Source of the DNA: a virus
DNA: 64,000 nucleotides
IMG/VR virus record: IMGVR_UViG_3300032223_001943
Location: 1-64,000 of that record
Strand: one strand, 5' to 3'
Part shown: positions 7,832 to 24,790 of the stretch, piece after piece
How the letters are laid out: the number at the start of each line of letters is the position of its first letter
Position numbering within the stretch: position 1 is the first letter of the stretch
The notes under the pieces: model-generated
Databases searched by the model: none
The model's input: only the letters and a program-made list of their open reading frames with translations
Told to the model about the DNA's origin: nothing
Made by a program: the position numbers and the translations under genes

Positions 7832-8047
7832 TTACTCAATTACTTCATCAATTTTACTTTCTACAATGCCGGTGATTCTCCAGTCCATTGTATAATTTTC
7901 ATAAAGTTTAGTAACTTTTGTTTCAACATCGGTTGGTGAATAACCTAAAACCAATTTTTCTTCACGCATTTTTTTTACTTTACCTGATTCAGTGTCCAAT
8001 AAGTCTGAACAGATTTTCGCCACAAAATATTTTTCTCCTTGTTCCAT
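7832..8047 (-). CDS. Small hypothetical protein (DUF4494-like)
   Basis: YF.AKI...GKVKK.RE..LV...S.T.VE pattern recalled from the Bacteroidetes DUF4494 family. Confidence 0.55.
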   Translation of the reverse strand: MEQGEKYFVAKICSDLLDTESGKVKKMREEKLVLGYSPTDVETKVTKLYENYTMDWRITGIVESKIDEVIE

Positions 8048-8052
8048 AATAA

Positions 8053-8763
8053 TTATCTATTTCCCAAATAATGATTTAATTTTTTCATTAAGTCAAGGGA
8101 TTTGTTATCATTACTTAATCGATCTACTTGTTCTTCTTCAATATTTTCGTCAAATTTTTGCCTATCTTCTGGGTTAAGAAATAGATACGCACCAGGTGTT
8201 GATGGTGATGACACTAAATCAAAACAAATTAATTCGAAATCGTCTTGTACTTCATTTTGTTCCCCCACCTTTTTCAGTGAACCCACACCTCTAGATGATA
8301 TTCCTAGGGTTACACCTTGACGTAGGTAGTTTGCTGCCATATCACCTTTAGTTGACACGATACCTCTTTCATGGAATCCAGGACTCGTTAATAGTTTTAA
8401 TTTACCCATTAAGATATTCCCATCCCACCACACTTCCGTAATGATATGTGACACACGATCAAGATCAATTAAAGAAGATTCTGGGTGATTTAATTCGGAC
8501 AGTGAAATACCTTTTTCAATCATTTTTTTATAGTTATCCGCTTCACGTTTTAATATACGTTCAGGATATACTCTACCATTTCTATTTGGGGTATTATATT
8601 TTTGTAGAACCGCGTAAAACTCAAAAGGTTTTGAATGATCCATAGAATTTCTTGATTCCATGATATATTTGTTATCGTCACTAGTTGGGGATATGAACCC
8701 AGCGTCCTCCTCAATTAATATTCCTTTTCCTATTTCATTTGGTCTTAATATCTTTAAGCTCAT
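8053..8763 (-). CDS. Prohead protease (T4 gp21-like)
   Basis: NRNGRVYP, ELNHP, VSHII, GISSRGVGS, FDLVSSPS.PGA motifs. Confidence 0.95.
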   Translation of the reverse strand: MSLKILRPNEIGKGILIEEDAGFISPTSDDNKYIMESRNSMDHSKPFEFYAVLQKYNTPNRNGRVYPERILKREADNYKKMIEKGISLSELNHPESSLIDLDRVSHIITEVWWDGNILMGKLKLLTSPGFHERGIVSTKGDMAANYLRQGVTLGISSRGVGSLKKVGEQNEVQDDFELICFDLVSSPSTPGAYLFLNPEDRQKFDENIEEEQVDRLSNDNKSLDLMKKLNHYLGNR

Positions 8764-8895
8764 GTTTTTTTTATTAATAAATATTAAGCTAATTCCATTT
8801 GTTTAATTTCTTGTTTATTTTTGTTAAATGGGGGAAGGGGGGAGGGGATATTTATTTTGATACAAATTGTTTTTATGAGTTCTATGATATATCTA

Positions 8896-9299
8896 TTAAA
8901 TTGGAAGATTAATTTTCTTTAATAATTGGTTTGAAACATGAGTATATATTTCAGTAGTTTTAGATGATGAGTGACCGGCAATTTTTTGTATTATACGAAG
9001 ATCTGTCCCATTTTCTAATAAATTTGTAAAACATGAATGTTTTAATGTATGTATATGTCCGTTAGGATCTATATATTTTTTGAATATATTTTGACATGAT
9101 TTTGTTGAGATACCGAGGTAAAACTATAGTTATCTAAGTAAGATTGAAAATCATTTGAGTTACAATGTATTATTTGTTTATCATTTAAACTTTCTAGAAA
9201 ACATTTAATATGTGATAAATAATTTTTCCTAGTTAGTATTGAGTAGTTCAGATATATAAACTTTTCCTCACAAATCTTTATAATTTTTTGATTTTTCAT
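8896..9299 (-). pseudogene. Decayed tyrosine recombinase (integron-integrase/XerD-like) with internal deletion and frameshift
   Basis: 9299-9100 encodes a SAM-like N-terminus (YLNYS..T.KNYL). A different frame at 9078-8896 reads KYIDPNGHIHTLKHSCFTNLLENGTDLRIIQKIAGHSSSKTTEIYTHVS..LPI*, the box II H-x-L-R-H / GH / Y motif with R>K. The central box I region is absent. Confidence 0.9.
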
Positions 9300-9335
9300 T
9301 ATGTAACTTATTTATAATTAATGATTTACAAAAAG

Positions 9336-9366
9336 GTTCGTATATATAATAGTTATATTCAAGTTT
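9336..9366. other. Integrase-proximal recombination half-site (attI-like)
   Basis: GGTTCGTATATATAATA-GTTATATTCAAGTTT; the GTTATATT.. part is the inverted complement of AAACCTAAATATAAC at the far end of cassette 1. Confidence 0.6.
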
Positions 9367-9676
9367 ATTTTTGTTTTGATTTGTCTATATAATTTGATTT
9401 GTCTATATAATAGTTACTTACAACATTATAATAATCAGTATTTTTACCTACTGATAATCTACTAGGATTACTATTTGTTCCTGAATACTGCAAGGAATAT
9501 ATTTTATTAGGATTTGTATCATTCAGTAAAAAATAATTAGCTGTAGCCATATAAAGTGATATATCATATAAAGTTATATCAAATTCTATATTATCAACAT
9601 CTGGAAACATATAGTGTTCATTAACTTTTGGTTTATCACCCCAAAATACTTCATCAATTTTAAATAGCCAAATCAT
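9365..9676 (-). CDS. Cassette 1 ORF, hypothetical
   Basis: 103-aa ORF filling the unit between GTTATATT (9352) and AATATAAC (9723); stop codon abuts the inverted repeat. Confidence 0.65.
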   Translation of the reverse strand: MIWLFKIDEVFWGDKPKVNEHYMFPDVDNIEFDITLYDISLYMATANYFLLNDTNPNKIYSLQYSGTNSNPSRLSVGKNTDYYNVVSNYYIDKSNYIDKSKQK

Positions 9677-9716
9677 AATCTTCTTTTTTTTAATTGTAAA
9701 ACAAAAATAAACCTAA

Positions 9717-9770
9717 ATATAACAAATGATAAACAACATTAAAACGATTGTTTATCATCGGACGTTATGT
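9717..9770. repeat. attC-like hairpin, copy 1
   Basis: ATATAAC-aa-ATGATAAACAA-cattaaaacga-TTGTTTATCAT-cggac-GTTATGT; 50-bp core identical to 10203-10252. Confidence 0.9.
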
Positions 9771-9776
9771 ACAATA

Positions 9777-10166
9777 CTACGATAGTTCTTCGATTGAAGA
9801 TACTCTATCATGTGCTGAATGGTTATCCCCACATTTAGTACAAACACATCTATTCAAATCTTTGTATTCATCTTTTTTATCCCAATTAAGAATATACCCA
9901 ACAAGTGTAGTTGTATGTTGTTCACATCCACATTTAGGACAATATTTATGTTTTTTATGATACTCTTTCATAAACATATCATATTGTTTTGAACTTTCTT
10001 CCGTATGTTCACCTAAAATATATGGTGCTAATATATATCCTTGCTTCCCTTCTGCTATTTCTTCTGACGATAAATGTTTTATTATTGGTGCGTTTTCAAC
10101 ATTAATAACACCATAAAATTTACCATCTACCATTTTATTTGCGTAATTTGTTTTAATTTTTTTCAT
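9777..10166 (-). CDS. Cassette 2 ORF, Zn-ribbon protein (CPKC...CTKC)
   Basis: ORF between the two hairpins; likely ATG at 10166; stop codon abuts GTTATGTACA. Confidence 0.75.
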   Translation of the reverse strand: MKKIKTNYANKMVDGKFYGVINVENAPIIKHLSSEEIAEGKQGYILAPYILGEHTEESSKQYDMFMKEYHKKHKYCPKCGCEQHTTTLVGYILNWDKKDEYKDLNRCVCTKCGDNHSAHDRVSSIEELS

Positions 10167-10200
10167 ATTTTTAAATTTATCTGTTAATAATCCGTACTGT

Positions 10201-10254
10201 ACATAACAAATGATAAACAACATTAAAACGATTGTTTATCATCGGACGTTATAA
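10201..10254. repeat. attC-like hairpin, copy 2
   Basis: ACATAAC...GTTATAA with the same 50-bp core as copy 1. Confidence 0.9.
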
Positions 10255-10339
10255 AATATCAAATCATAATTAATCTCTTTGAGTCTCTCTAGTTGGGTCA
10301 CTCTCTCAATTATGGTCTTATAATTTGACATTTTATAAC
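10248..10339 (-). other. Third cassette-like unit (92 bp), possibly encoding a 30-aa peptide MSNYKTIIERVTQLERLKEINYDLIFYNVR
   Basis: Ends are 16/17 inverted repeats (GTTATAAAATATCAAAT / ATTTGACATTTTATAAC); ATG at 10331, TGA inside hairpin copy 2. Confidence 0.55.
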
Positions 10340-10341
10340 AA

Positions 10342-10349
10342 CAAATATA
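10342..10349 (-). promoter_or_regulatory. Bacteroidetes-type -7 promoter element pointing into the cassette array
   Basis: TATATTTG (TAnnTTTG consensus) directly upstream of the first GTT on the minus strand. Confidence 0.6.
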
Positions 10350-10424
10350 AGAAATAAGTTTCTATAACCAAAAAAAAGAGTGATAAAATCACTCCATATA
10401 TTTACGATCGTTAAGCACATGTCA

Positions 10425-10922
10425 CTAACTGGTTAACAATACTTCTAAAAATTTTGGATCATTCGTTGTTTCAGTTCGTCTTTCATATTTTTTGTTTTTT
10501 GTTAAATGGAAGGTGAAGTACTTATTTTGATAAAAATTGTTTTTATGAATTGAATCCGTTATTTTCATTAATTCAGATTGTAAACCGACGGATTTAAATT
10601 CGGTGGATGGTTCGTTGAGGTAGAAATTTATTTCAAGATTCATAAATGATTTTTTACCGACTTGAATTCCACTTGGTCTTAAGTCCAAGTCAACGATATA
10701 GTTGGATTTAAAAATATCGGAATTTAAGGATTCCAATATTGAATGTTTTATTTCTCTACTTAAGTTCAACGCAACCCTAGTCCAATTTTCATTTTCATAT
10801 TTTGGTTCGATCCAAGTTTGAATATTTAGATAAAGTGATTTTAACAAAACCGAATCAACGGTTCCATATGTTATTTTTGAAATTTCATATCCAGTTATTT
10901 TTGAGGTTTTTCCTTTTTTCAT
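10425..10922 (-). CDS. Conserved hypothetical protein divergent from bS21
   Basis: 165-aa ORF; its 3' end is duplicated in degenerate form at about 8790-8885. Confidence 0.8.
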   Translation of the reverse strand: MKKGKTSKITGYEISKITYGTVDSVLLKSLYLNIQTWIEPKYENENWTRVALNLSREIKHSILESLNSDIFKSNYIVDLDLRPSGIQVGKKSFMNLEINFYLNEPSTEFKSVGLQSELMKITDSIHKNNFYQNKYFTFHLTKNKKYERRTETTNDPKFLEVLLTS

Positions 10923-11012
10923 TATATTTCATAGTCTACAATGTTTATTTTTTAATAATATAAACATATTTATAGTTATAGTCAAAAAAATAAAATTTAA
11001 TAAGTAATTAGT

Positions 11013-11207
11013 ATGCTGATAGTTAAGGTGGGGAATGATAAAAATATTGAACGAGCATTAAAACAATATAAGTCTAAAATAATTAAAACTAGACAAATGA
11101 CTAAATTAAATGAAGGTAAAGAATTTATTAAACCTTCCGTAAAAAAAAGAAACGTGCTCAGCAAAGCCAAACACGTTAATAAAATCTATAACAAAAAAGA
11201 AGATTAA
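11013..11207 (+). CDS. rpsU: Ribosomal protein bS21
   Basis: MLIV.V...NIERALKQYK.K..KT...L....EFIKPSVKKR, 64 aa, Bacteroidetes-like S21. Confidence 0.92.
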   Translation: MLIVKVGNDKNIERALKQYKSKIIKTRQMTKLNEGKEFIKPSVKKRNVLSKAKHVNKIYNKKED

Positions 11208-11917
11208 ATTTCTTCCGATAAGTTTTTAAGTTTGAAGTATGTTATTTTAGAATATTCTTCAGACTTAACTTTTTCTATTGATTCATTAATTGTATCAATC
11301 ATATCACCCTCGGATTTTTCTTTAATGGTATTAAGTTTGGTTAGAATACCTTCCTTAAGTGGTTCGAACTTAACTTTAAGATCTTCATCACTTGATTCGA
11401 AAATTAAGTTAAATTCTTTTTTATCGGATTCATTTAACCCCTCGTAATATTTAGTAATAGTCTTATTAGCGATATTAACCATTGTTGAAACAGGTAAATT
11501 AATAACTTGTTTCTCAGTTTCACCTGGTTTAGTCAATGATTCTCTAATCACATTCTTAGCGATAATACGTCCCTCGATATTTAAGACACTTCCATTAAAT
11601 AAATTATCAATCATATCATAATTATTCGTCACATTAACATGATTAACCCATTTCTTAATAGTTAAGATATCTTTATCTTCAATCTTATTAATAGTGTTTT
11701 CATAAAAAGTTATTGATCCATGAATAAAGTCGTTAGCGACATGTTCATTTAACCCTTTATTAGACGACAGTTCATCGTATAAATAAAAAAGTTTAGCAAT
11801 GTTTCTATTACCCAAAACATATTGGTTAAACTTCTTTATTTCATTCTTAAACGAGTCATTTCCATAAGACTCGTTTAATATATGTTCAATTTTTGTTTTT
11901 AATAACCCGAATTTCAT
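11204..11917 (-). CDS. Conserved hypothetical head-cluster protein
   Basis: ORF downstream of portal; start MKFG at 11917 follows an ATATTTAT motif. Confidence 0.75.
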   Translation of the reverse strand: MKFGLLKTKIEHILNESYGNDSFKNEIKKFNQYVLGNRNIAKLFYLYDELSSNKGLNEHVANDFIHGSITFYENTINKIEDKDILTIKKWVNHVNVTNNYDMIDNLFNGSVLNIEGRIIAKNVIRESLTKPGETEKQVINLPVSTMVNIANKTITKYYEGLNESDKKEFNLIFESSDEDLKVKFEPLKEGILTKLNTIKEKSEGDMIDTINESIEKVKSEEYSKITYFKLKNLSEEI

Positions 11918-11939
11918 ATTTACTTTTTTATTATAAATA

Positions 11940-14900
11940 TCAATCATTCAAAAGTTTGTTCAATTGTTGTTCAATATCACCTAAAGAATTTCTCGCTTTT
12001 GACAAATCAATGTATTGATCCTCCTCAAATAGATTATCATTTTCTAATAATATGGATAAATTATCCCTAGTTTTACCTTCAGGAGTTACACCCGCTTCAC
12101 CACCAACTTCTGGTCCTGGTATAGGAGGCATTGGAGGTAATCCCATATCACTACCTATACCAGATGGTTCTCCTCCTGGCGGTGGTGGGGGAGTTGCTGT
12201 TACGGATTGTGTACTACCAGTTTTTGTCCCATATAACTTATCGATATTATCAAATAATCCAGTGTGTGTTATAATGGTCGCAGTATTAGTTAACTCGGCA
12301 GCTACCGCCCGTTCAATACGTTGTTGTTGTAAATCTAATTTAATTTCTTCATCTGAAAAACCTAATATATGTTTTTTAGCCCAAGATGCCGACACCGGTG
12401 CAAAAGTGTCTTGTAAAGGTGTAACCGCGTCTTTATACAATAACATTTTTTCCTTCCAAACATCAATTTTTAATAAATCCGCTTGTGATGAGGGATTTGT
12501 TAGATTTAGAGTAAATGAACGTAATTCATCTTCAAAACCTAATAGGAATAAATGTATGATTGCGATCTTATTTAATTCCGCTAATGCACACTTCTGAATT
12601 TTATTAATTGTTCTAGCAAAACGGATATCCATTAATGATAAATCTTTACCACCACCAACTGGTTCTTCAAACCCTAAAAAGGCTTTTGGAACACGTAACG
12701 CCGTTAATAATTTTTTCTGAATATATTCAATATCTGAAATTTCTCCAAGGTTGCTATTTTTAATGAAAACCCCCGATTCGACAGCAAAAGTGTGGAAATT
12801 ATGGTATAATTCATCCCCATCTACCGTTATTGTTCCGGTGTCCATTCTATCATTTAAGTACTCAATCGCAACAATTTTGTGGTTATAAAGAATTTCAGAT
12901 TCTGTTTTGTTTTCTTTTACAATATAATATCTCCACGCACGTAAATTTTTATAACCTATTTCATTCGCGGTTGTTTTTGACCAATCTCTGTAGTTTTTGA
13001 ATCCACGTTCTTTTAACATCTTTTCAAGATGGTTGTGTGTGAATTTTTCAAGATTGGTTAATGAACTTCTAATTTCTAAGTTTGTGTTCACAAACTCGTT
13101 CATAAAATCGGTTGAATTGTTTAATTCAATTAAAGCTAAGTCGGCACGACCAGTTTTATTGAACATATCAAAAAACATTTGGTAAAGTTCTTCAGTGAAT
13201 GTTAGAGTTTGTTTTTTAGAAAAAACTTTTTCTTTATATTCATTAACTTCCCACATTTGTTTTGAAATTTTAGAAAAATTTTCCTTAAACTCAATTGTGG
13301 ATTTAACCTCACTAATTCGTTCACCTCTTTTTTTAATGATTTCAATTTTATTAGGACTATTATTAATAACCTCGTTAATCACCGCTTGATGGTATTTAAA
13401 GTGATCTTGATTATTCATCCACACAATATTTGATGGATTATTATTAAATCTATTAAAATCCTTATGGTGTCTAACTTGTTTAGTGTTGTTAACGAATTTT
13501 TCTTCATGAATCATTTCACCAATAACACCAAATTGATCTAGATGGTCAACCACAAATCTATGTGTGAATACCCATTCTTGTTTTTCAGTATCCCAAACTT
13601 GTTCATATTCATTACTTTTTTTACTAATACGTTCATTACGTTTATAAAACGGCATTAATGAATCACCAACAACTAAATCTTGTGCTTCAACAAATCCTTT
13701 TGTTCTATGAACCCACTTATGGTCTGGGGTTGTGGTAATTGATTCCCCATTATCCAATGTGATTTTAATAACTTCAGCATCTTTACGAGTAGTCCCCGCC
13801 CATGTTATCATACCTGGTGCTAATTCACCAGTTTCAGGGTTACAAGAATAAACCCATAAATCACGATTTCCGTTATCCCATTCTTCGATTATTTGTTGTA
13901 ATTCTAACACTCTACCATCCAATAATGGAATTCTCGTATCTAAAGCAATACAAGCCCCTGGTAGAGTTTCAATTGGTGATGGCGACGTTGGGTCACGAAC
14001 TGGAATAAAGTAGTCTTGATCTACCGCCATTTGGTTAAAACGCATATCAACATTCCCTGTTGCCGAATCAACCACTTGGTCTCGTTTGAACTTATTTGCA
14101 ACACGTTGTACATATGGTTCAACATCTTTATCATCCATATTACCAACAAAAACCTTAAATACTCTACGTTCAGGTGCTCTACTAGTTCGGTAGATTAACA
14201 TGGCGTCCTCAGCTAAACAATTGTGTACAACTGAACCATTTGCGATAAAATTATGTAATTCAGATTCAACCTCCAAGTCCCAAACTGGTTCATCATCATT
14301 TTCAGTTATGTCAATAATCTTTTCAAATGATACATTATCAAGTGAAGGTATTACTAAGTTATCTTCATCGATTTTTATTTCATTTAACGTCTTATATTCA
14401 AAATCACCATCACAATAAACAAGTACTTGATGATCATCTGTTATATCAATTGAATTGTATCTTGTTCTAACATTAAATGTTTTTTTAACGCCACTTTGCC
14501 AACAATCTTTAACCTTCGTTGAAATTAATTCGTTATTATTAAAATCATATGAATAAATTATCTCACCCGATTTAATATCTTTAATCATCTTATAACCATC
14601 GATTGTCCAAACTTTTGTATTTTCACTAACACACAATTGTTTCCACACACGTCTAGCCTTCTCTAACATTGACGTGCCATATGGCAATTTTCGGTCATCC
14701 CCCAATAATCTAAAGTGGGCAATTTCCCAAGTATTAAACTCCATATCTTTAGCCTTCCACTTGAATCTAAGACCTTTATTTTCAATTGGTTCGTCGGTAT
14801 TAATACTTTTGGCTGCCATTCCACGTTCAAACCGTTCAATTTCAATGTTTGGTAATTGAGTACAACCGATAATACCTTTTTCTGGATCTAATTTAAGATA

Positions 14901-23699: not shown

Positions 23700-24086
23700 T
23701 TAATAGGGAATCCATTTCGGGGATAACTCACCCAAATTATAATTAACTTTTAACCACCCCGTCATAATTTCTTTAATTTCATCGTGGGTATAACCCATAA
23801 TTTCCTCAAGAAATTTTATAATAATATCACGTCTTATCCAATAAAACCCATTTTTTGAATCTTGGTCTGTTTTATAATAACTAAATAAAATTTCATCGTT
23901 ATTATCAACATAAATAACATCACCATCTTCTTCAACTGGAGTTAAATTATTAAATTGATTTAAGAATAATAATGGATTATTGTTATATACTTGTCGGATT
24001 ATATCATCACCAAACATTTGTCTGGATTGTTTTAACCCTAATTGTTTAATTATTAACCCAATCTTATATTTCAGTTTTTCTTCCAT
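23700..24086 (-). CDS. Paralog family member 3
   Basis: MEEKLKYKIG...LG..Q.R..FGDD.I.Q.Y..NP. Confidence 0.75.
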   Translation of the reverse strand: MEEKLKYKIGLIIKQLGLKQSRQMFGDDIIRQVYNNNPLLFLNQFNNLTPVEEDGDVIYVDNNDEILFSYYKTDQDSKNGFYWIRRDIIIKFLEEIMGYTHDEIKEIMTGWLKVNYNLGELSPKWIPY

Positions 24087-24104
24087 AAAACAAATATAAT
24101 AAAA

Positions 24105-24133
24105 AAACCCCAAACTTATTAAGAATGGGGTTT
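24105..24133. terminator. Repeated terminator hairpin (identical copies at 24247-24275 and, inverted, 31709-31737)
   Basis: AAACCCCATTCTTAATAAGTTTGGGGTTT; each copy is followed by TATATTTG. Confidence 0.8.
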
Positions 24134-24140
24134 TATTTTT

Positions 24141-24230
24141 ACCTAGGGGTGGGGTTTTAAACCTTCATCGGATTACGCCAGATGACCTACGACTGGTATT
24201 ATTTAGTGATTGAACCAGCAACAATCATAT
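24141..24230 (-). ncRNA. Candidate structured small RNA
   Basis: GC-rich ~90 nt between a TATATTTG promoter (24237-24244) and a terminator; stems CUGGU/ACCAG, UAGG/CCUA, UCAUC/GAUGA, GGUU/AACC. Confidence 0.45.
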
Positions 24231-24298
24231 TATGTACAAATATAAAAAACCCCAAACTTATTAAGAATGGGGTTTTATTTGTTCATTAACAAAAAAAA

Positions 24299-24790
24299 TT
24301 AAATAAGGGTTACAGTTTTTTTCTTGTCTTTTTTGTTTTTAGGTAAAGTGATAGTTAACACACCATTAGTTAATTCAGCATTAACTTTTGTTGAATCATA
24401 TTCATAAGAAGTTAAAGTAACATTTTCGTTAACTGTTTTTGTGTACGTATTTTCACCGTAACCATATTCTCTTTTTCCTTCAATTGTTAAAACGTTATCG
24501 GTAATTTCAACTGTTAAATTTTTCTCGTTAAAACCAGGTAAATCAAACGTTAAATAAGTTGCGTCATCGGTTGTATAAGTTTGAGGAGTCAACCAATTTG
24601 TGAACAACGGAGTTAATGAAGTTGTTCCAGCAACTGTTGGCCAAGTTGTGTTAGGTCTATTCCAGTTATTTGTTGGCCAGTTGTGATTAGGAGTGTTTAA
24701 TTTACGGGATGAATCTCTGAATTCGTTAACGAAATTTCTCAATTCTTGGTCAAAATTATAACCTAATAAGTTCTCTAATGTTTTTGTCAT
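24299..24790 (-). CDS. Small heat-shock protein Hsp20
   Basis: DLPGF....L.V.I....LTIEG.R ... A.L.NGVLTITLPK alpha-crystallin motifs. Confidence 0.92.
   Translation of the reverse strand: MTKTLENLLGYNFDQELRNFVNEFRDSSRKLNTPNHNWPTNNWNRPNTTWPTVAGTTSLTPLFTNWLTPQTYTTDDATYLTFDLPGFNEKNLTVEITDNVLTIEGKREYGYGENTYTKTVNENVTLTSYEYDSTKVNAELTNGVLTITLPKNKKDKKKTVTLI

Follow-up and report, generated by a model that had tools for sequence, protein, structure and literature searches.

A probable integron-like gene-cassette platform, with a tyrosine recombinase of another kind, in a T4-like phage

This report concerns a short island in a stretch of viral DNA of 64,000 nucleotides (nt), positions 1 to 64,000 of the IMG/VR record IMGVR_UViG_3300032223_001943, the whole of which we call the window. 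At window positions 8803 to 10551, the island very probably holds one copy of a phage-borne gene-cassette platform that resembles an integron but relies on a different tyrosine recombinase: present there are a short Xer-like recombinase (as a remnant), preceded by a TAAC docking junction and, farther upstream, by an array of hairpin-bounded cassettes that all share its orientation. An earlier, sequence-only reading of the window had proposed integron-like gene capture at this locus, and the proposal is supported here with corrections to the enzyme, the class of site, the crossover point, and the genome size. With regard to the last of these, the virus record has direct terminal repeats and a length of 123,201 nt; the phage is T4-like and, at only 123 kilobases (kb), is not the “jumbo” phage that it had been taken for. 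Its host, judging from the promoter motif and from cultured relatives, would belong to the Bacteroidota.

Each cassette body starts with GTTA-X and ends with X′-TAAC, with X and X′ being complementary to each other and specific to the cassette, and the cassettes of an array, which face the same direction, lead up to a fixed docking site that precedes the recombinase gene by ~50 nt. In the mechanism that we propose, a cassette would leave as a circle, in which X′-TAAC, the hairpin, and GTTA-X form one long palindrome, and the recombinase would join this palindrome, presumably as a folded single strand, either to another site or to the docking site; the crossover would fall right after TAAC. The hairpin would come to lie 5′ of its gene, longer versions of it would carry a promoter and sometimes a start codon, and the mRNA-like strand would be the strand built to fold.

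The cassette island of the window

All open reading frames (ORFs) of the island region in the ORF list lie on the minus strand, and, read along that strand, the island runs from a head-module gene (gene A) through a decayed hairpin site, three cassettes split by two identical sites, and the docking junction to the recombinase. Its components, in this order, are as follows (the basis of each call is given in parentheses, and lengths of proteins are in amino acids [aa]).

10336–10413, minus strand: distal decayed long-loop site, TAAC-GATCG-...-TT-GTTA (sequence)
10248–10339, minus strand: body of cassette 3, 92 nt, nearly palindromic, with a 30-codon ORF at 10239–10331 (inverted repeat I2)
10204–10251, minus strand: short hairpin site (type 1), TAAC-GTCCG-ATGATAAACAA-loop-TTGTTTATCAT-TT-GTTA (pattern and structural scans; fold of its twin at 9720–9767)
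9764–10207, minus strand: body of cassette 2, with a 130-aa ORF (9777–10169) that has CxxC...CxxC motifs, i.e., two CxxC pairs (terminal repeats, ORF list)
9720–9767, minus strand: short hairpin site (type 1), identical to the copy at 10204–10251 (pattern and structural scans, fold)
9352–9723, minus strand: body of cassette 1, with a 103-aa ORF (9365–9676), adjoining the docking site (inverted repeat I1)
9335–9355, minus strand: attI-like docking junction, the TAAC of cassette 1 (9355–9352) followed by TATTATATATACGAACC (9351–9335) (conserved junction in homologous loci)
8899–9299, minus strand: tyrosine recombinase remnant (Pfam PF13495 and PF00589)

The sequence-only reading described two identical palindromes splitting three units. 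Both are present, and their identity over 50 nt (9719–9768 and 10203–10252) is upheld: the element has exactly two matches in the window at three or fewer mismatches (0 expected from 100 shuffles), and these two copies are all that exist in the 123,201-nt genome. To them we add a third site, decayed and located where the array begins (10336–10413). The short site at 9720–9767 folds at −9.1 kcal/mol on the minus strand (z −3.45), with TAAC/GTTA closure and a 3-nt bulge, versus −7.7 kcal/mol and a central stem only on the plus strand. The decayed site has a weak AT stem, no single-hairpin fold, and an intrinsic terminator in its loop (10370–10394); its right arm is homologous to a strong site with an 18-bp stem in another locus (L008), and the site as a whole is common to a related locus (L048) at 97% identity. 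The promoter box that had been noted at the array head is present, as TATATTTG at 10342–10349 on the minus strand, inside the loop of this site.

Across the genome of the window, a permissive structural scan (G:U pairs allowed, 9-bp stems) finds three plausible sites in total, all within the island, and is the only scan to pick up the decayed one; a strict scan recovers, on the island strand, just the two short sites. On the plus strand, the strict scan gives an extra match at window positions 24033–24312, a 10-bp stem spanning 280 nt at the limits of the scan, which is probably a chance match; duplicated terminator-promoter blocks were noted in that region by the sequence-only reading.

Each of the three units has terminal inverted repeats of its own, as had been claimed, and these are longer than first reported: 26 nt at 92% in unit 1 (9352–9377 and 9698–9723), 22 nt at 91% in unit 3 (10248–10269 and 10318–10339), and, in unit 2, GTTATGTACA (9764–9773) versus TGTACATAAC (10198–10207), a 10/10 match that can be extended to 14/15. 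The claim that ORFs stop at the repeats likewise stands, with stop codons in or just ahead of the 3′ repeat arm (TAA at 9365–9367 and TAG at 9777–9779). The body of cassette 3 folds at −12.8 kcal/mol (z −4.9), and its 30-aa ORF has no match in PHROGs, the sole library run on it. The 130-aa ORF of cassette 2 and the 103-aa ORF of cassette 1 belong to no Pfam or PHROGs family; cassette 2 has a 72% DNA match to the 642-kb record of an uncultured phage, and cassette 1 has homologs in three other loci (L033, L058, and L104) at 53 to 55% amino acid identity. The 3′ end of the cassette 1 ORF also contains a perfect 18-nt tandem duplication (TTTGATTTGTCTATATAA, twice, at 9375–9410) that doubles six codons (NYIDKS).

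A tyrosine recombinase gene does follow the array, as had been stated, but only as a remnant whose domains lie in different frames. An N-terminal ORF of 76 codons (9069–9299) matches the SAM-like domain PF13495 (E 9.9e-5; 23.1 bits, below the gathering score of 27), and the C-terminal 75 codons (8899–9123) match the catalytic domain PF00589. Relative to intact homologs of 265 to 268 aa, about 128 codons are gone, among them those for the catalytic Lys and the first catalytic Arg, and a Lys has replaced the second such Arg (HTLKHS, where homologs have HTLRHS). Owing to this internal deletion and mutated catalytic residue, the recombinase is dead and the cassette system of this genome is frozen. 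Contigs from three other studies (X2, X3, and X5, introduced below) have 387 nt more exactly where the two pieces of the gene overlap, so the deletion is private to this lineage; from their length, the recombinase genes of those contigs appear to be intact.

Sites, cassettes, and recombinases across phage loci

The hairpin occurs beside many other genes: an exact-stem pattern search of IMG/VR found it in at least 119 stretches, and, among the matches listed, 127 of 136 (that of the window included) have the same 11-nt loop. The conserved block reads (A/C)TAAC-GTCyG-stem-loop-stem-TT-GTTA(T/G) and is present in 4, 1, 1, 2, and 1 copies in five records of 123 to 465 kb. In most pairs of loci, homology stops within a few nucleotides of this block, which sits right after stop codons; downstream of it come promoter-like sequence and then an A-rich leader with an ATG. 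Boxes of the form TAnnTTTG lie inside some site loops, other promoter-like boxes being TTTTAC-like. The inverted partner of a cassette head, X′-TAAC, is often followed by other palindromes in the same TAAC/GTTA frame.

These other palindromes belong to a wider class. Over 934,522 nt, a strict scan (minimum stem of 11, no more than one mismatch) recovered 364 TAAC..GTTA sites, versus 33, 18, and 151 for the controls CAAT..ATTG, ATTG..CAAT, and GTTA..TAAC, the last of which we take to count the terminal repeats of short cassettes. The two spacers measure 5 and 2 nt in 251 sites, 5 and 1 in 57, 6 and 3 in 13, 6 and 2 in 11, and 4 and 1 in 10; the mirror asymmetry is nearly absent and, therefore, the sites within a locus all point one way. 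A looser scan of the same loci (the first 111; stem of at least 10, spacer difference of 3 to 4 nt) gave 388 sites with 230 distinct cores, 139 distinct 11-nt stems, and at most 18 sites per locus. Over all loci, there are 390 distinct site cores on ~200 phage contigs, with the general form TAAC-N5-stem/loop/stem-N1-2-GTTA and lengths of 48 to ~290 nt. The sites are, thus, a class defined by structure and not by sequence, and the 50-nt element is merely the commonest of these versions. An Rfam search of the sites returned no match, save one unrelated and subthreshold (E 0.22). The permissive scan was dropped as a site finder (25 and 43 matches versus 33 to 51 in controls) and kept for stem ranking only. 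In the 390 distinct cores, stem mismatches of the G:T type on the gene strand number 632, against 107 of the A:C type, and the better-folding strand is that of the gene in 329 of 344 cores.

The complementarity between the two ends of a cassette is a property of the cassette. When the 14 nt past GTTAx were compared and pairs with at least nine matching positions counted, the two ends of one cassette passed in 131 of 212 cases (mean, 8.9 positions), whereas in the controls the same threshold was reached by 3.5% of 311 comparisons between the flanks of a single site, 2.4% of 210 comparisons that skipped one cassette, and 3.6% of 19,657 random pairings. A repeat test that makes no use of the site list agrees (at least 15/18 in 17 of 52 cassettes versus 1 of 43 in the control). 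Such repeats are what would be expected if each cassette, whose median length is 295 nt, had once been a circle with X′-TAAC, hairpin, and GTTA-X as one long palindrome.

That TAAC| is the crossover point is well supported. Identical right halves of docking sites join different cassettes exactly at TAAC| in six sets of loci (L159/L160/L162, L152/L154, L165/L166, L189/L190, L131/L137, and L183/L184), and 3′ homology ends no more than 3 nt from TAAC in 9 of the 18 informative homologous cassette pairs (out of 161 distinct pairs). In L033 and L058, the homologs of cassette 1 have a near-identical 3′ arm followed by the type 1 hairpin, at the place where the window has its docking site. The crossover previously assigned to G|TT accordingly maps to TAAC| (equivalent to |GTTA on the plus strand) instead of strictly to G|TT.

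In 521 of 540 cassettes, the longest ORF (median, 85 aa) is co-oriented with the recombinase and, thus, points toward it; stop codons lie before the end of X′-TAAC in 360 of 365 cassettes, and, of 266 cassettes with long sites, 101 have the start of the ORF within the site upstream. In many long sites (L069, L070, L199, and L095, among others), the loop and right stem encode a start codon and a leader peptide, ...ENLNISDV, that is read through GTTA into the body, such that one cassette body can sit behind different leaders; this peptide (...NISDV) either matters in itself or just reflects the conserved stem, and, as a speculation, it might serve to target the product to the capsid.

Cargo was sampled by running Pfam on the 20 longest distinct ORFs out of 363 from other loci. 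Four are N6/N4 DNA methylases, and there is one each of a C-5 DNA methylase, a Methyltransf_24 with DUF3310, a Mom, the Thoeris inhibitor Tad6, and an RNA ligase; two have weak or uninformative matches, and nine have no match.

The sites are tightly linked to the recombinase gene. In hairpin-selected loci, 16 of 16 recombinase genes (recognized by an N-terminal match) lie on the site strand, 0.3 to 2.5 kb downstream of the short hairpin. We then have an independent sample of 80 IMG/VR loci chosen by the recombinase alone (57 to 100% identity), in which 322 sites are upstream on the recombinase strand and none downstream on it, with the other strand holding none upstream and one downstream; intact homologs of the recombinase are, in other words, linked to arrays, as the sequence-only reading implies. 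A site is present in 53 of the 56 loci that have at least 1.5 kb of upstream sequence, the number of sites per kb declines with distance from the gene (112, 79, 50, 35, 22, 14, and 10), and arrays reach 15 ordered, co-oriented, structured sites within 7 kb. The docking junction, TAAC|TATTATATATA, precedes the start of the recombinase by 60 to 90 nt in 16 of 16 hairpin-selected loci (each has TAAC|TAT..ATATAT at this location) and, by a loose rule, in 71 of the 80 recombinase-selected loci, a few picks of that rule (L124, L139, L143, L148, L150, and L200) being a TAAC closer to the start codon. In the window, the recombinase remnant starts 52 nt beyond the junction.

By sequence, the enzyme is an Xer-like recombinase of ~265 aa and not an IntI. 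The intact homologs match Pfam PF00589 and PF13495, and their NCBIfam matches all fall under the curated cutoffs: archaeal XerA at 184 bits (cutoff, 220), XerD at 156, and integron integrase TIGR02249 at 151 in two stretches (cutoff, 265). The best solved structures are XerA (4a8e, E 1.4e-37) and IntI4 (2a3v, E 7.7e-26). In the alignment of a 268-aa homolog (L012) with the latter, residues 21–180 correspond to 18–181 and residues 210–267 to 259–316, leaving 29 aa where Vibrio cholerae IntI4 has 77, so the IntI-specific segment, whose presence would have been expected of an integron integrase, is absent. Candidate Arg, Lys, His-x-x-Arg, His, and Tyr residues, which we take from our own reading of the motifs to be catalytic, fall in invariant columns of eight intact homologs. 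Among cultured phages, Cellulophaga phage Ingeline and the Polaribacter phages Freya, Leef, and Danklef have the nearest homologs, which are integrases (37 to 40% identity).

Further relatives of the recombinase (40 to 49% identity, similar length; L204 to L283) come from bacteria and metagenome-assembled genomes (MAGs). Here, 24 TAAC..GTTA sites occur on the strand opposite the gene, in 14 of 80 loci that include Nitrospirae MAGs and a Desulfitobacterium chromosome, and just one occurs on the gene's own strand. In the multisite loci (L206, L209, and L218), the sites are downstream of the recombinase gene (e.g., at 1953–5347 in L206 and 7726–12156 in L218). These may represent a differently arranged cellular counterpart.

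Turnover among relatives and rival explanations

The island is set into the head module of the phage, with the following features at its borders.

10425–10922, minus strand: gene A, 165 aa, head-module neighbor upstream of the array (ORF list)
10481–10551, minus strand: direct-repeat copy 1, within the 3′ end now in use by gene A (repeat families D2 and D8, pattern search, pairwise alignment)
8803–8885, minus strand: direct-repeat copy 2, formerly the 3′ end of gene A and now displaced to a position just ahead of the protease gene (repeats, pattern search, alignment)
8053–8763, minus strand: T4 gp21-type prohead protease, downstream neighbor of the island (PF03420, E 1.2e-23)

Gene A has no Pfam or PHROGs family and ends 12 nt ahead of the TAAC of the decayed distal site; its homologs adjoin gp21 in one related locus (L052) and another array in a second (L048). 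Copy 2 of the direct repeat is 83 nt long and diverged from 10551–10481, the duplicates of the gene A 3′ end being about 75 to 90% alike across 70 to 85 nt. The last ~40 codons of gene A (10551–10425) are the copy that came with the island, and the duplication could be an integration scar or the outcome of recombination with another phage. Within the displaced copy, a C-rich run, CCCCTCCCCCCTTCCCCC on the minus strand (window 8826–8846), is absent from the working copy, and contigs of other samples have lost 5 nt or gained 2 nt here. A ribosomal protein S21 homolog, also noted by the sequence-only reading, separates gene A from the head-module gene that comes next (11013–11207, plus strand; PF01165, E 3e-9).

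Near-identical relatives differ in cassettes, with breaks at site borders, and a more distant one lacks the insert altogether. In L052 (~69% DNA identity), gene A is followed by gp21 after 37 nt, at the position of direct-repeat copy 2, such that this locus represents an empty site. L048 is 96.8% identical to the window from 10320 to 12752, decayed distal site included; left of 10320, it has other cassettes and other sites, each cassette with its own repeats. We also aligned contigs of four runs from four studies (labeled as lake, estuary, and aquatic metagenomes) to positions 8000–11500, where island stretches without cover constitute no evidence of absence. A 6,750-nt contig of run X3 (depth, 85) spans both flanks: in it, 1,097 nt replace 9358–9716, with homology reaching 9357, beside the docking junction, and 165 nt replace 9776–10329, a replacement also seen in X2. 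At the position of cassette 3, L048 and the X2 and X3 contigs carry instead a cassette of 165 to 190 nt. Short unitigs of the hairpin in X3 have depths of 1,575 and 3,172, far above the 85 of the phage, which places the hairpin in many other contexts in that sample. Contig joints at 8632>10626, near 8096–8190, and at 10656–11118 were set aside for short sides or low depth, as they may stem from other organisms.

Isolates of a cultured phage provide a parallel. Between Freya_1 and Freya_10 (L122 and L284 to L286), the flanks are 100% and 99.8% identical, with a 20-nt overlap, and a ~4.9-kb block of ~12 small ORFs, directly upstream of the homologous integrase, differs. The sites of the Freya phages look different in detail from those of the phage studied here. 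In the paper on these phages, the integrase is taken to indicate that they are temperate, and the words “cassette,” “insertion,” and “indel” do not occur in its main text (PMC8776804).

Several points weigh against a recombinase-driven cassette platform. The copy in the window is itself degraded, in its distal site as well as in its recombinase. No recombination event was observed in the contig data, which are unable to show circles, and a role of the recombinase in cassette recombination is suggested by linkage. The folding bias of the sites is confounded, since the folding strand is also the mRNA sense strand, and RNA hairpins such as terminators could explain it. A first, crude repeat test, with exact copies of the short hairpin as markers, found matches at 7 or more of 10 positions in only 3 of 14 neighbor pairs, a weak result because other site types in between were missed. 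The 5′ side of the cassettes is also irregular: homology there often ends 7 to 53 nt inside the core of the upstream site, at no single point, and, among 83 homologous cassette pairs, both adjoining cores are the same in 64, both are different in 11, and only the left or only the right is the same in 4 each. A single 5′-side crossover, with the hairpin tied to one neighbor, was dropped for want of a consistent pattern among homologous pairs; crossovers may use both borders, or else homologous exchange plays a part as well.

One alternative dispenses with the recombinase: the hairpins would be terminators followed by promoters, as in promoter early stem-loop (PeSL) modules, and the genes would be shuffled by ordinary homologous recombination at these motifs, in line with a proposal made for T4-type phages. 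PeSLs, stem-loops just upstream of a promoter, are tied to indels and mini-circles (PMC4122927), and much of what surrounds the short hairpin would fit this description, including the T4-type head module of the phage (PF03420), the place of the hairpin after stop codons and before promoter-like sequence, an A-rich leader, and an ATG, the TAnnTTTG boxes in some loops, and the terminator and promoter box in the distal site of the window. The 48-nt short hairpin, identical in many contigs, could support homologous exchange, and 5′ breakpoints lacking one fixed point would be natural. We nevertheless consider this explanation quite unlikely. Exchange occurs between sites that share no stem sequence (139 stems in the first 111 loci, 390 cores overall), and the docking site has no homology on the cassette side, yet its joins are exact at TAAC|. 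Homologous recombination does not predict cassette-specific inverted repeats, the common orientation of all sites with a fixed 3- to 4-nt spacer asymmetry, or the confinement of sites to the upstream side of the recombinase on its own strand (80 loci; one downstream site on the other strand). Copy number is also low (2 in this genome and 1 to 4 in records of 123 to 465 kb), whereas PeSLs are scattered through hyperplastic regions.

Very unlikely, in our estimation, is an island that amounts to a lysogeny or integration module (Int plus attP) of the phage or of a small element residing in phage genomes, with the small genes as accessories beside attP. Such a module would account for the closest cultured homologs of the enzyme, which are annotated as integrases and read as a temperate sign in the main text of PMC8776804, as well as for the diverged duplicate of the target gene's 3′ end that brackets the island, as is often the case for integrating elements. 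It accounts for the enzyme, however, and not for the array: the system occurs in a T4-like phage and in records of up to 465 kb, its ordered, co-oriented sites number up to 15 in 7 kb, its cassettes have their own terminal repeats, and isolates of one cultured phage differ by a block exactly at this site. The two explanations are compatible, in that the docking site could serve both functions. It is more improbable still that each unit is a small nonautonomous transposon (GTTA...TAAC) mobilized by a transposase encoded elsewhere, with hairpins as preferred targets. Every unit does have terminal inverted repeats, and one 211-nt body (99.5% identical in L069 and L070) is flanked by different sites on both sides; but, beyond GTTA/TAAC, each cassette has repeat arms of its own, which one and the same transposase could not recognize. 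Moreover, the sequences examined contain no target-site duplication, the ORF list and Pfam matches of the island revealed no transposase gene, and the units are uniform in orientation and confined upstream of one recombinase.

Wider meaning and relation to known systems

Integrons are the textbook gene-capture device of bacteria, and both their origin and their need for the IntI-specific domain, a segment thought to be required for hairpin recombination, are open questions. In the phage loci, the same logic (docking site, hairpin-bounded cassettes, and one-way array) appears to be run by a shorter, Xer-like enzyme, and hundreds of natural site variants are available for comparison. With methylases, Mom, and a Thoeris inhibitor among the sampled cargo, the arrays look like a phage counterpart of the defense-gene banks of bacterial chromosomal integrons and offer a ready list of small candidate counterdefense genes. 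The window itself is a natural experiment, setting a lineage with a dead recombinase beside close relatives with a longer gene and different cassettes, and the signature TAAC-N5-hairpin-N2-GTTA could be used to locate hot spots of accessory genes in uncultured phages.

It is possible, although we would sooner wager against it, that phages of Bacteroidota-like hosts run an integron analogue of their own, with a minimal Xer-like recombinase devoid of the IntI segment, folded single strands recombined at TAAC, a bank of counterdefense genes (methylases, Mom, and the Thoeris inhibitor), and two-part genes in which the site loop provides promoter, start codon, and leader (e.g., ...ENLNISDV) to a cassette body read through GTTA. 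If this were true, integron-type capture either arose twice or survives here in a system close to the ancestral state, and the 103-aa and 130-aa cassette proteins of the window would be candidate antidefense genes.

Our literature searches found no description of this platform, on which the supplements of PMC9892861 and PMC8776804 might bear. The succession of hairpin, promoter-like sequence, and ATG at first suggested PeSLs (Arbiol 2010; Comeau 2014), which also occur in T4-like phage genomes. In a PeSL, a stem-loop immediately precedes a promoter and the beginning of a small accessory ORF, much as the hairpins here precede promoter-like sequence, and close relatives differ at PeSLs, as at the cassettes, by insertions, deletions, and replacements (PMC4122927); mini-circles have reportedly been proposed or detected in their case (PMC4122927; PMC2839356). 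Unlike the sites described here, whose promoter-like boxes are of the TAnnTTTG or TTTTAC-like type, PeSLs are numerous in each genome, have a sigma70-type promoter and loosely conserved stems, and come with no dedicated recombinase, docking site, TAAC/GTTA frame, fixed spacer asymmetry, or cassette-specific inverted repeats.

Closer in kind are the attC sites and clusters of attC sites lacking integron integrases (CALINs) reported from phages by Qi et al. 2023 (PMC9892861), in whose main account site-bounded cassettes, some with methyltransferase cargo, occur in virulent phages, including a Polaribacter phage. Those sites differ from ours in having been found with IntegronFinder and HattCI models of classical attC and tested with the bacterial IntI1, and the portions of that paper on phage cassettes describe no dedicated phage-encoded recombinase family or docking site. 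The platform recalls Xer/dif systems in its recombinase, whose best family and structure matches are Xer (4a8e; NCBIfam XerA, below the cutoff), and perhaps in the form of a duplex site, as X′-TAAC plus 5 nt and the left stem resemble two inverted 11-nt arms around a short spacer (8/11 alike, by eye), where a dif-type site has 28 to 30 bp with two inverted arms and a spacer of 6 to 8 bp. The pdif modules depend on the host XerC and XerD acting on 28-bp duplex sites. In Acinetobacter plasmids, they consist of genes flanked by inverted Xer sites (PMC7399989); unlike the phage platform, they are not known to come with a hairpin, a docking site, or an array next to a recombinase of their own.

The closest resemblance is to integrons, the sedentary chromosomal ones in particular, although the platform is not a classical integron, because its enzyme is, on sequence grounds, Xer-like and without the IntI-specific segment. 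Both have a tyrosine recombinase of the Xer/IntI branch with a docking site at the 5′ end of its gene, and both have a one-way array of small cassettes in which new cassettes appear beside the docking site; the attI-like junction lies upstream of the recombinase start, and identical right halves join different cassettes. Classical integron cassettes are promoterless and transcribed away from intI from a common promoter. Those of the phages point toward the recombinase and have promoter-like boxes of their own, in the sites (often within the loop) or in the cassette heads, and the noncanonical layout noted by the sequence-only reading (recombinase downstream of the cassettes and co-oriented with them, long cassette-specific repeats) is borne out. 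The section on attC architecture in PMC5027507 describes sites that conserve structure over sequence, with AAC...GTT triplets, paired outer and inner boxes separated by an unpaired spacer, and a variable loop, and with the same kind of folding bias for the recombined strand. The phage sites resemble this plan in part (TAAC/GTTA, spacer, stem, and variable loop, in 390 distinct versions), with one strand folding better, an excess of G:T mismatches, and complementary ends to each cassette. They depart from it in spacers of 5 nt versus 1 to 2 nt, where attC has 5 to 6 nt per arm, and we identified no separate extrahelical bases in them. The cassette-specific complementarity extends over 14 to 26 nt, not the 6 to 7 nt of integrons, and the phage enzyme, at ~265 aa, has 29 aa against 77 in the IntI segment and scores 151 bits against a cutoff of 265. 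Finally, the folding strand of the platform is the coding strand, and its carriers are phages.

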